A stretch of DNA of 11,354 bases from Carcharhinus longimanus (lineage: Eukaryota), in assembly GCA_030264375.1 (NCBI GenBank). It is one part of the record JASCQW010000072.1 of this genome. The stretch is one strand, 5' to 3'. The notes beneath the pieces were generated by a model that had not been told where the DNA came from, did no database searches, and was given only the letters and a program-made list of their open reading frames with translations. Below, in pieces: positions 3,184-10,368 of the stretch (positions within the stretch are counted from its first letter, which is position 1; every line of letters starts with the position of its first letter). Position numbers and translations under genes: made by a program.

Positions 3184-3618
3184 AAATGGAGATGCATTTT
3201 TATAAACCCAGAGGTGGCGATTATTAGGATGCGATTTCTTTTGGAAAGAAGAAGTAACTTTTGACATGTACTGTGTATAAATTGTATCCTCTATAACTCT
3301 GACCGTGATGCATTGCCCATTGACATCCCCTCACCATGACCTTTCTGACATAATGTACCACACCGGTCCATTGACTCCTGGCAGGAAATTTTCAGTTGCA
3401 CCATCCAGCCTAAAAATTTAAATTGGGTAGAAATGCAAATGCACAGTCACCAAAAGTAATGACATAGGTTCACAAGGTCATAACAATAGCAAACCGAGTA
3501 CTAGGCTTTAGTTCTAAAAAGGATATAACTGAAAAGCAAAGAGGTGATGCTGAATTTGTGTTGAATCTTTGTCAGATCACACACAGGGGTGCAATTTTGG
3601 TCAACTTATTACAGGAAG

Positions 3619-3691
3619 TGGTCAGTGTAGACTCAATGGGCTGAATGGCCTCTTTCTGCACTGCAGGGATTCTATGATCTATGATTCTATG
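3619..3691 (+). mobile_element. Short 3' tail of a CR1/HER1-type LINE or its partner SINE, nested in the older CR1
   Basis: gggctgaatggcc stem-loop followed by (ATTCTATG)-type terminal repeats gattctatgatctatgattctatg. It interrupts the host frame directly after YYRK. Confidence 0.85.
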
Positions 3692-3974
3692 AAGTTATGA
3701 AGGAAAACATACAGAGGCAAGACACTGCAAAAAAACGATTTACAAAGGCAATGCCAAGAATATGGGGCATAACTAACAGGAAAGGATGAACAGGCTGGAT
3801 TTCTTTTCTCTTGGAAAGAGAGGGCCAAGGAATGACTTAATGGTCGTCTTTAAAATCAGGACAGGTTTTGGTGAGTAAAGATAAAGAAAATTGTTCCATT
3901 TGCGTGGAACAGCAAAACTAGAGGACATCAGTGTAAAACCAAAAAATCCAATAGGAACTCAGAAGAAGTTTCTA

Positions 3975-4461: not shown

Positions 4462-4758
4462 ATAGGAACTCAGAAGAAGTTTCTACCAAGAGAGTGGTGA
4501 GAATGTGGAACTCGTTACCACAGGGGATAGTTGAAGTAAGTAAGGCAGATGCGTTTAAGGAATGTTAGATAAGCACATGACAGAGCAAAGAATAGAGTGT
4601 CCTGTGGATAAAGTTAGATGATGAAGGATGGGAGGAGGCTTGAGTGGAGTATAAACGTCAACATGGACTGGTTGGTCCAAATATCCTTCTTCGATGGCCT
4701 GTTTCTGTGCTATATGCCCCACATAACGTAATATGTATTATATAATGTTAAGAGAAAA

Positions 4759-5095
4759 TGGTGGCATAGTGGCAATCTCACCAGACTAGCAACCAAGAGG
4801 CCCAGGCTTATATTTTGGGCTCATGGATTCAAATCTCGCCATGGCAGCTGGTGAAATTTAAATTCAATCAATGAAATCCAGAATTGAAAACTATTCTTAG
4901 TAAATGCAACCATAAATCTATTATCTATTGTTGCAAAAACCCATCTGGCTCACTAATGTCCTTTAGGGAAGGATGTCTGCTGTCCTTACCTAGTCTGGCC
5001 TACATGTGACTCCAGACCCAGCAATGTGGTTGCTCTTCATTGCCTTCTGAAATGCCCTGGCAAGCCACACTACATCCGATGAAATTAAAAAAAAA
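4759..5095 (+). mobile_element. tRNA-derived SINE, near full length with a shortened tail
   Basis: Pol III A box tggcatagtgg (4762-4772), B box-like ggattcaaatct (4825-4836), about 335 bp long, ending in A9 (5087-5095). The body (aaaacccatctggctcactaatgtcctttagggaagga) resembles an abundant shark SINE from recall; the family name is not certain. Confidence 0.85.
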
Positions 5096-5234: not shown

Positions 5235-5700
5235 ATCCTCTGTAAACTTCAGCTCAGTTAAATCTGATGCCATTGACCTGTACCGCACCAGCTCCTGTTC
5301 ACCCTATCCTAATGGTGAACAGTCCCCCCAGGCCTCCAATTTAAAAATTCGCAAATGCACGTAGATCATTTCCACACTTTAAGCCATGCTCCTCCCTTAT
5401 TCTGCAACCTCCTCCCACAATCGCTGTTCCTTGAACGTGGCTTTTTATCTTCTGTCCTCCCTCCACATCGGCGTCACAGCTATGCCTTCAGTTGCCCTGA
5501 CTCCAAGCTGGGAAATTTCTCCTTGACCTTCTGCAAAACCCACCTCTTTGAGCAAGCCTACTTGTGACACGAATAAATAAACTTAAACTTAAAAGTCTGG
5601 CTACTGCTCCAAATATCTTCTGCTTTGATTTTGTGAGATGTTGTGATCCAATTATGCCTCCCTATGTTAAGACTGTTATATAAAAGCAAGGTTTTGGTGT
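5235..5700 (+). mobile_element. L2-clade LINE 3' fragment, decayed
   Basis: ORF 5355..5567 has APPLFCNLL, AFSCPDSKLGN and KTHLFEQAY, matching L2 LAPPYLxxLL, AFSxxGPKLWN and LKTHLFxQAF. Tail gttatataaaagcaaggttttg near 5675-5697. Confidence 0.85.
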
Positions 5701-5919
5701 TCACAAAATGATGTCAGATAAAGCATTTTTATTTATGCAGTAAAGTTTGAGTTACTCAAACTGTGGGAGATCAATACCAGGAATAGAATATTTTTAAATG
5801 TTTTGTATCATTTGGCATAACTAAAACTTACACATCTTACGATTTATTCCGAGGTGGAATAAAAGTCCTATACTATCCCAAGCATGTATATTAAACAGTC
5901 ATCAGATAGCACAGAACAT

Positions 5920-5970
5920 TAATATTGCTGATAAAAGAGATAAGTTGTCCAAAATTTTTTGTCTTGCACT
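5920..5970 (-). mobile_element. Distal end of the Penelope-like element, detached by the 5971-7104 insertion
   Basis: tgtccaaaattttttgtcttgcact (5946-5970) joins catcaggaca (7109-7118) to rebuild a hammerhead motif with terminal tgtc/gaca pairing. The left boundary is approximate. Confidence 0.65.
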
Positions 5971-7104
5971 TGGGATGGGAAGATCCCAAAACAGAACACT
6001 GGCTCAAAAGACTATAACTTTTACTTTTTTATAAAACGTGGAGGAACAGAGTCATGGGACCACTAACTAGTTTTAACAATTAAAAAAATTAGATTAAAAA
6101 ACAGTCAACACTATCCCTTTACTGCCCCTACCACCCCACTTTGACAAACACACAGATTTAAAGATTAGTATCAATTTCAAAGTACATTTTAGGCTCCAAT
6201 AAATAGTCTCATTAATACAAAGTCCTTTTAAGCACACAAGATGACTATGGCCAAATGCACTCTCAATTCTGAACCCCAAATGAATGATGTTTCCTCAGAA
6301 TCCTCCTGGATTTTCACAGTCAAAACAGGCTTTAAAATCTTCTCCCATGATACTGCTTTCCCTGATTCTTTTACACTCCAAAATCCAGTCTATGTTTTAT
6401 AAATTACACTTTCGAACAAAGCTCGCACTCCACTTTTAACAGTGAATCTAGTCCAGGATTTTGCATCAACCCCTTTCGGGTTTCTTTGTTGTAAAGTCTT
6501 CTACACAAACTCTGAGATCCAACCATTAATTTAATTGATTATTTCAAATAATGTCTCACAAACCTTAGTGCTACTGCAAATATCTTTCTGGCCTCTCACA
6601 ATCTAATACCTTTTCAAATCCGTGACTTTATTAAACAGTAATATGTTCTTGCGCCTAGTTTCCTCTGTTGTGTGTTGGACTTTAGATAACCATTATTCCA
6701 TGGTATGGTTTTTCTTCTAGCAAGGCTCAGAGAGACATTTCCTCTTTAGCTTTCCAAAACCTACTGCTTCTGGCAGAGCTTTGAGAGCTGCCTTCTTGCT
6801 CCCTGAATATTTACAATTGTTCTGGCTTCCTAAGAACAAAGGAAAACCCTTGTCTATGGGAAGTGTGCTTCCTATTGCTTAGCAATGCCCATGCTACATC
6901 GTAACACTCTCTAAGAACAATAGAACTTAAACAAGTTGGAATTTAACCAAGTCCCACACATACAAACACCTTTTGTTGAGTATGAATCTAACTATAGATT
7001 TTATCCTTCCAGGTACAGAAACATCAAACACACTTAAAACTATANNNNNNNNNNNNNNNNNNNNNNNNNNNNNNNNNNNNNNNNNNNNNNNNNNNNNNNN
7101 NNNN
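5971..7104. mobile_element. ~1.13 kb insertion, probably a solo LTR
   Basis: Defined by interrupting the Penelope sequence. It starts with TG (5971), is flanked by cact (5967-5970) and tact (7105-7108) as a candidate 4 bp TSD, and has no coding signature. The expected CA end would lie in the 60 N gap and cannot be seen. Confidence 0.55.
7045..7104. other. Assembly gap (60 N)
   Basis: N run. Confidence 0.98.
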
Positions 7105-7107
7105 TAC

Positions 7108-7118
7108 TCATCAGGACA
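7108..7118 (-). ncRNA. 5' half of a minimal type I hammerhead ribozyme (other half at 5946-5970); inactive relic
   Basis: Minus strand reads TGTC-CTGATGA. The rejoined sequence is tgtc ctgatga gt-gcaag-ac aaa aaattt t ggaca. GAAA has decayed to AAAA at a CpG. Confidence 0.6.
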
Positions 7119-7152
7119 GACACAAGAATACCAAATTTCAAAGGCAACAACA

Positions 7153-7208
7153 ATTAATACTATATGAGAAAGTGGGTGCTAATTGGCTGGCAAGTTCGTT
7201 CTGATTGG
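7153..7208 (-). promoter_or_regulatory. Candidate Pol II promoter of the Penelope terminal repeat (CCAAT, CCAAT, TATA-like)
   Basis: ATTGG on + at 7204-7208 and 7182-7186, which is CCAAT twice on minus, 22 bp apart. TATTAA on minus at 7159-7154, about 36 bp upstream of the ribozyme. Confidence 0.4.
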
Positions 7209-7463
7209 TCAAGTTGTTGACATGTGAATGTATCATGTAGCTACTGTGCCCCATGCTTTTGTTTATTCAAAAAGGTGCAATGTCTGATTATATACCTTTA
7301 GCCTGCAGAGGTTCCTGTATATCAATATGTGTAACTTCTAGCAAGCCACGTTGTGTACCCTTTGTAATAATCATCAACTGGTCGTTGGTGTAATTGTTAG
7401 CATACTCTGAAACGTGCAGCAAGTGCAACCCCATTGCAGAATTACATACAACATCAGACATTA

Positions 7464-7556
7464 TGTTCCAAGATTTGCAAGAATGGGTGGGCTGTGTGGT
7501 CAGTAGACTGTTATAAGATTTGCAACTATGGGTGAGTTGAGTATAGGTAGTAGTCT
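7464..7556. repeat. 45 bp-period tandem duplication inside the Penelope ORF
   Basis: tgttccaagatttgcaagaatgggtgggctg (from 7464) versus tgttataagatttgcaactatgggtgagttg (from 7509). Peptide TQLTHSCKSYN / TQPTHSCKSWN. Confidence 0.85.
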
Positions 7557-7769
7557 GCCTGTTGTGAACAGCCGAAGGGACATCCTGGTTGATATGGTCC
7601 ACCAGTCATTAAGACACCTTTAAGATCAGCCTTTTGTGTTGATGGGTGACATCTGAATCCCAAAGTTTTGACCTGTTCAAAGGTCAAAATGCTTCACCCT
7701 GAATACTTATTGAGAATGAGACTAGAACATCATTTAAAAAGGGAGAAATGGGGTTGCAGAAGAAAATGT

Positions 7770-10115: not shown

Positions 10116-10368
10116 TAGAACATAGAACATAGAACATTACAGCGCAGAACAGGCCCTTCGGCCCATGATGTTGCGCCGACCAGTTAAAAAANNNNNNNNN
10201 NNNNNNNNNNNNNNNNNNNNNNNNNNNNNNNNNNNNNNNNNNNNNNNNNNNNNNNNNNNNNNNNNNNNNNNNNNNNNNNNNNNNNNNNNNNCCAATTTCC
10301 TAGACTACCCTCAATCCCATACATCTGCATTTTCTGCAGAAGCCTACCATGGTGAACCTTATCAAACG
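10116..10368 (-). mobile_element. Relatively young CR1/HER1-type LINE, 5'-truncated in the RT domain, with the middle hidden in a 100 N gap
   Basis: Perfect (TAGAACA)x3 tail at 10116-10136, ggcc-cttc-ggcc stem-loop and intact CpGs. Right of the gap the minus strand gives FDKVHHGRLLQKMQMYGIEG, the RT motif AFDKVPHxRLLxKlxxxGI. Confidence 0.85.
10192..10291. other. Assembly gap (100 N, the conventional unknown-size marker)
   Basis: N run of exactly 100. Confidence 0.98.

Follow-up and report, generated by a model that had tools for sequence, protein, structure and literature searches.

An old Penelope-like hammerhead ribozyme split by a nested repeat, likely a solo LTR, in Carcharhinus longimanus

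A sequence-only reading of an 11,354-nucleotide stretch of the Carcharhinus longimanus genome (part of record JASCQW010000072.1; this whole stretch is hereafter called the window) had picked out, on the minus strand, two parts of a small hammerhead ribozyme of the kind carried by Penelope-like elements (PLEs), separated by about 1.13 kb. The arrangement raises the questions of whether both parts belong to one ribozyme, what came between them and whether such a ribozyme could still work. Our analysis indicates that the two halves do belong to one hammerhead, that their split is not a chance arrangement of letters, and that the locus is real but ordinary genome debris, namely a fossil hammerhead split by a nested mobile element. 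The features concerned are as follows.

5893–5970, minus strand: 3′ piece of a Penelope-like element, delimited by coverage with family-related loci and blastn
5946–5970, minus strand: downstream hammerhead half, from the window letters compared with column counts of 29 copies
5967–5970, plus strand: left copy of the target-site duplication (TSD), CACT; the TSD length of the insert family is 4
5971–7104, no strand assigned: inserted repeat, likely a solo LTR, recognized as a separate family by its ends and TSD
7045–7104, no strand: run of 60 N, an assembly gap or withheld stretch, inside the insert and touching its right end
7105–7108, plus strand: right TSD copy, TACT, identical to the left one at 3 of 4 positions
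7105–7616, minus strand: 5′ piece of the Penelope-like fragment (3′ UTR and ORF end), from the right-flank genome search and coverage
7106–7118, minus strand: upstream hammerhead half, with the stem I 5′ strand TGTC, the core CTGATGA and the stem II 5′ strand GT
7288–7605, minus strand: decayed C-terminal part of a GIY-YIG endonuclease (P0001, 105 aa, partly frameshifted), from its reading frame, 142 genomic matches and a profile

The two halves of the split hammerhead lie at 5946–5970 and 7105–7118. Read on the minus strand, the upstream half (7118–7106) is TGTC-CTGATGA-GT and the downstream half (5970–5946) is AGTG-CAAGAC-AAAAAATTTTGGACA, which confirmed the letters originally proposed. We searched the 2.68-Gb Carcharhinus longimanus genome with the right flank alone (7105–7330) and obtained 1516 first-look candidates, 40 of which were scored (73–81% identity). 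The loci were picked by this flank only, so the downstream half was unselected. In all 29 other loci fetched, sequence resembling the left flank, as judged by eye, stood directly before ACTCATCAG, and in 8 of the 29 a separate, abutting blastn match to window 5893–5970 was recorded. Column counts after CTGATGAGT were G23, C23, A28, A27, G24 and A25 of 29. The contiguous 20-nt core CTGATGA-GTGCAAGAC-GAAA had 65 exact matches in the genome, as against none for the reversed control, and a 34-nt motif in which everything but two CpG sites was fixed had 211 (control, 0). The halves are contiguous in 29 of 29 other copies; their separation elsewhere, which the sequence-only reading had named as a sign that it was wrong, was not observed.

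The family motif drawn from these 29 loci consists of a stem II GT-GCAAG-AC, followed by GAAA and AGCT-T-C-GACA, with an AAGCTT palindrome and C at N17. Position 12 is G in 20 of the 29 copies and A in 8, a clear CpG-decay pattern, which bears out both the expectation of a GAAA box behind stem II in the consensus and the explanation of the AAAA in the window as a CpG-decayed GAAA. The first decayed CpG site reads T18/C6 then G20/A8 across the 29 copies and the second T13/C13 then G13/A10, and both CpGs were kept in none of 100 motif copies among the matches listed. The palindromic stem III could be upheld only in part: a palindrome does exist in the family, but it is AAGCTT, and the aaattt of the window, two transitions away from it, is a product of decay, stem III having been mis-parsed. 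In the window copy, position 5960 (G12) is A, the palindrome has A in place of G at 5955 and T in place of C at 5954, C17 (N17) reads T (5951), one extra G is present at 5949–5950 and the stem I strand GACA corresponds to 5949–5946. The type I core is therefore not intact in this copy, with G12 changed to A, the palindrome and N17 altered and stem II split by a 1,134-base insert. G12 is the general base of hammerhead catalysis. Because it reads A here, the window copy is predicted to be inactive irrespective of the insert; lacking G12 and C17, the ribozyme would be dead even if the insert were absent.

Family copies display the features of a type I hammerhead, including a CUGANGA box, a stem II with G10.1–C11.1, a GAAA box, A15.1–U16.1, H17 and an open stem I. 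In 24 copies 88.5% of the stem cells were paired, and covariation showed no excess over shuffles (51 of 500 shuffles reached the score), as is expected for decaying copies chosen by their core, so that the stems gain no support from it; the copies are neutral decay products selected in this way. As judged by eye, GAAA and C17 are retained in about 12 of 100 copies among the matches listed, together with stem I and a G-U at the stem II base. As a rough estimate, the 211 motif matches suggest a family of some 5,000–30,000 hammerhead copies at 10–15% divergence. An Rfam scan of the window returned no hammerhead to E 5, in keeping with the expectation that a motif scanner would miss both halves, but this is nothing special to the split copy: the Rfam hammerhead models also gave no match to E 10 in 10 loci with an uninterrupted core, blastn found both window halves at once by plain homology, and the window copy would fail a motif scan even without the insert (G12 is A, stem III is decayed and N17 is changed). 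The miss reflects a limitation of these models with small PLE motifs. Many of 30 core loci contained partial copies of the hammerhead region in inverted orientation, and such copies are a described trait of Penelope-like insertions (PMC8557442, PMC4209133). One further locus, L087, holds two near-perfect fold-back pairs of family hammerheads, the partners a few bases apart (475–570 and 1484–1569); its hairpins score against miRNA models by chance.

We then characterized the host element. The 3′ piece (5893–5970) contains A9 and stem-loop II, the decayed GAAA, stem III, the cleavage site and the stem I 3′ strand. The element ends near 5893–5910, as blastn coverage by 138 family-related loci is zero below 5890 and above 5970, and it is truncated on the 5′ side near 7616, with zero coverage at 7620. 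The window thus carries a single, 5′-truncated copy made up of about 5893–5970 plus 7105–7616, in which the hammerhead lies about 170 bases behind the GIY-YIG endonuclease remnant on the same strand. A profile (A1) built from six endonuclease remnants matched 1301 proteins, the long ones of which consist of a reverse transcriptase (RT) plus a GIY-YIG-like domain at the C-terminus. Among 12 profile matches that were scanned, RVT_1 exceeded the Pfam cut-off in 5 and GIY-YIG fell just below it in 4, and the profile aligned to the C-terminus behind the RT in the four longest matched proteins. P0001 aligned directly to one of the profile matches (P0002) with E=2e-7. A genome search with a full-length protein match gave 75 matches, and in at least 6 of 30 RT-match loci (L141, L144, L146, L156, L160 and L161) an RT remnant, window-like DNA and, downstream, the family hammerhead or its flank followed one another on one strand. 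The order RT then C-terminal GIY-YIG is present for the family, while the window itself retains the endonuclease tail only. In the window and in L121, L124, L128, L141, L144, L156, L160 and L161, a hammerhead lies close to the 3′ end and on the coding strand. Together, the RT and GIY-YIG remnants upstream on the same strand identify the host as an EN+ Penelope-like element, and the origin first proposed for the hammerhead stands. Only stop-riddled remnants of the studied family were found.

Against this assignment, Pfam gave nothing meaningful on remnant frames of the window and the family loci, and two word-indexed protein searches with element remnants were both blank. A PDB sequence search with the endonuclease profile was blank as well. 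No CxxC linker was obvious in four long homologues, and the label of the Neptune clade was dropped on this ground; its absence may point to Penelope/Poseidon rather than Neptune. Tandem non-coding repeats each bearing a hammerhead, which define the non-LTR retrozyme (bioRxiv 10.64898/2026.07.22.740005), were not seen: the window has a single copy with a coding remnant.

What, then, is the sequence between the two halves? It belongs to a separate repeat family and, excluding the flanking 4-bp duplication, measures 1,134 bases (5971–7104), in agreement with the insertion of about 1.13 kb already postulated. The sequence-only reading had mentioned neither the CACT/TACT duplication around the insert nor the 60 N at 7045–7104. 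The left duplication covers A9, G10.1, U10.2 and the first loop II base. A search for the insert family yielded 1931 first-look candidates, 40 of which were scored, so that the 2.68-Gb genome contains at least 1,931 candidates, with fixed TG...CA ends and copy lengths of about 1.04 to 1.59 kb. Identity between the two flanks peaked at 4 bp, reaching 75% as compared with 23% for a mismatched-pair control (n=9); three of these nine TSDs were perfect, three had one mismatch and three had two. In eight further insert copies the 4-bp TSD was perfect in five, nearly so in one and unclear in two. The window insert keeps the terminal TG but lacks the next 26 bases found in other copies (offset 7 as against 33 in 23 of 24). 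An initial reading of the insert as a LINE 3′ end was given up when its fixed ends and TSDs emerged. Compared with its siblings, the window copy had a mean pairwise identity of 77% in the insert (n=10) and of 79% in the host (n=28). These values resemble those among the siblings; insert and host are both old and drifting.

Solo LTRs of Gypsy-type retrotransposons and class I endogenous retroviruses resemble this family in their TG...CA ends, 4-bp TSD, length of about 1.0–1.6 kb, non-coding content and dispersal. The insert family differs from them in that no parent element was found, and the window copy differs in lacking the 26 bases just inside its TG end. Searches of 42 plus 30 insert flanks and five pattern matches revealed neither a full-length parent nor a primer-binding site or polypurine tract, and none of the five had an LTR internal region. 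One candidate parent, L135, was rejected after translation, as it showed a transposase-like frame next to the insert end motif rather than an LTR internal region; the frames at L135:244–1505 on the minus strand, which adjoin this motif, may be a remnant of a hAT-type transposase. Short frames within the insert had no Pfam match. The name solo LTR accordingly rests on the ends, the size and the TSD. An LTR origin is likely on these sequence features.

The same missing parts might mean that the insert is a non-autonomous DNA transposon, or another element with very short inverted ends, and not an LTR. No internal region, primer-binding site or polypurine tract was common to the 42 flanks or the 30 further 5′ flanks, and the variation in copy length would suit such an element. 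Against this, the TG...CA ends have an inverted match of only about 5 bp and are accompanied by a strict 4-bp TSD of variable sequence, a combination typical of what LTR integrase produces; the two ends also share no long terminal inverted repeat. A DNA transposon or similar element is thus an unlikely source of the insert.

We favor, with a probability of about 0.9, an old 5′-truncated Penelope-like copy with a small type I hammerhead at its 3′ end, interrupted by a second repeat (likely a solo LTR) so that the split ribozyme is predicted to be dead. The ancestral motif would have comprised stem I TGTC/GACA, CUGAUGA, a 2-bp stem II with a 5-nt loop, GAAA, a palindromic AAGCUU stem III and C17, and may have cut itself when dimeric or when aided by protein, which has been reported for other ribozymes of this kind. 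Integration of an LTR retroelement at the junction of A9 and stem II would have been a chance event, after which recombination left a single LTR. Neutral changes, CpG decay among them, would have removed G12, C17 and the palindrome G-C pairs before or after the insertion.

We examined contigs of other samples for both junctions of the insert. The left junction was bridged by contigs of runs X6 and X9, which carry different organism labels, and a contig of X11 was one base short of the bridging rule. Because the X6 and X9 contigs bridge this junction, the insertion is shared and old and predates the split of these organisms. The extra G at 5949–5950 is absent in the X9 contig, and the G12 change is likely common to X9, the eight differences of the contig being accounted for by other rows among those listed. 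The N run and right junction were bridged by none of the contigs in seven distinct runs; contigs of three runs reach 33–36 bases past 7044 and then stop. We infer the right junction from the duplication and the gap size: in other insert copies the distance from the point where the N run starts to the terminal CA is 57–65, mostly 64, bases (n=19), which matches the 60 N.

A junction that falls within N and that no contig bridges could have been made by scaffolding, the N run then linking halves from two different family copies; the family has very many copies, and a 24-nt overlap duplication is seen at another gap in the window. Such an artefact is nevertheless very unlikely, since the overlap at which the halves meet is exactly 4 bp, as long as the TSD of the insert family, the gap is of the size of the missing insert end, and the left piece lacks everything upstream while the right piece lacks everything downstream, with no redundancy between them.

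That the insertion falls inside a 34-nt motif might also suggest that hammerheads or Penelope-like elements are targets of the insert family. The PLE pieces of the window were matched by none of 77 distinct insert flanks, and seven weak flank matches were to only 1–5 of 42 loci, as compared with 17–26 for the window's own flanks. No second insert–PLE junction occurred in the 15 loci examined of 19 two-mismatch matches to a junction-type pattern. Simple arithmetic (5,000–30,000 hammerheads and at least 1,931 inserts in 2.68 Gb) predicts about 0.1–0.7 insertions of this family in the 34-nt motif by chance alone, and targeting is hardly credible. Nested transposon insertions number about 600,000 in the human genome (Giordano et al. 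2007, PMC1914374); as in those described there, a younger element here fragments an older one, and the locus differs from them only in that the interrupted stretch is a ribozyme motif.

Folding was computed for eight natural family copies. The hammerhead fold ranged from +4.1 to +10.5 kcal/mol as a monomer and from −3.9 to +8.6 kcal/mol as a dimer, the dimer fold being cheaper than one monomer fold in 7 of 8 copies, and it was the minimum-energy fold in none of the eight, neither as a monomer nor as a dimer. These modeled energies fit weak, dimer- or protein-assisted ribozymes, as small PLE hammerheads have been reported to be (PMC4209133, PMC6765202, PMC6466107, PMC11167929). The prospect that the ribozyme can still form, with the TSD repeating A9-G-U-G, the insert acting as a 1.1-kb enlargement of loop II and the core blocks in order (CUGAUGA-GU is retained in the right half, AC and then the core remainder in the left half, and the locus is common to related organisms), is practically nil, given that G12 reads A, that a 2-bp stem cannot plausibly close a 1.1-kb loop, that the stem III self-duplex is weakened (−2.8 kcal/mol in the window as against −5.7), that no second family hammerhead was found as a partner in the window or within 10 kb to either side, and that the window copy has diverged to the same degree as its siblings (79% versus 78% pairwise). 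We consider it just as far-fetched that a transcript could rejoin the halves, or borrow the missing G12 half in trans from family RNA, as a naturally split hammerhead kept across related species.

Both components of the locus, hammerheads in Penelope-like elements and nested insertions, have already been published; a split PLE hammerhead did not come up in literature searches directed at other questions. The family agrees with the type I hammerheads described in the pLTRs of EN+ PLEs (Cervera & de la Pena 2014, PMC4209133; Lunse et al. via PMC6765202, PMC6466107) in its type I topology, CUGAUGA and GAAA boxes, G10.1–C11.1, short palindromic stem III, 3′ position behind GIY-YIG, thousands of mostly single dispersed copies and close opposite-strand pairs, whereas the window copy is decayed and interrupted. 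Its stem II has 2 bp and a 5-nt loop with no extra base after A9, unlike the Schistosoma motifs, which have 7–8 bp and a bulge; 2-bp stems II are described as common in hammerheads generally (PMC3088659). The exact family sequence was not found in two of the three supplements of PMC4209133, and the motif may be in print in the rest or in figure alignments. The Poseidon element PAc of Anolis is likewise a vertebrate EN+ PLE with a pLTR hammerhead, the cleavage of which depends on the element's protein and is not required for in vitro insertion (PMC11167929); PAc is intact and active, whereas the family studied here survives as stop-riddled remnants.

Taken singly, the locus matters little, although it dates the insert family as younger than the studied Penelope-like family. 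The wider point is that small fossil hammerheads invisible to Rfam can number in the thousands in one genome. The family motif, with its 2-bp stem II and AAGCUU palindrome, could be one further test case for the role of such ribozymes in Penelope-like transposition, and intact elements elsewhere in the genome are better material for it than the broken window copy. One locus, L136 (G000:C2006:1-3944), carries a different, apparently intact Penelope-like element with an 860-aa open frame flanked by two identical hammerhead cores on the same strand (at 297 and 3071, 2,774 bases apart), and makes a more promising candidate than the studied family for an element that is young or active. Further long RT frames (680–770 aa) and other hammerhead core types occur in L137, L138, L145 and L154 and in L149, L156, L157 and L165, and an AAGCTT-type palindrome also stands behind the core in L156 and L157 (fully) and in L165 (with one change). 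Several PLE–hammerhead families coexist in the Carcharhinus longimanus genome.

Several other features of the window were recorded. An exact 24-nt duplication (3951–3974 and 4462–4485) surrounds a gap of 487 N and is likely an assembly overlap. A possible exon on the minus strand (1829 to about 2006) has a strong donor-like site and a cysteine-rich frame with weak likeness to a TNF-receptor repeat (E 0.64; protein search blank); if it is real, the hammerhead fossil may sit in sense orientation in an intron. Finally, 1633–1714, 3618–3699, 4762–5062, 5554–5594 and 10116–10188 are dispersed-repeat fragments common to 10–51 of 202 fetched loci.
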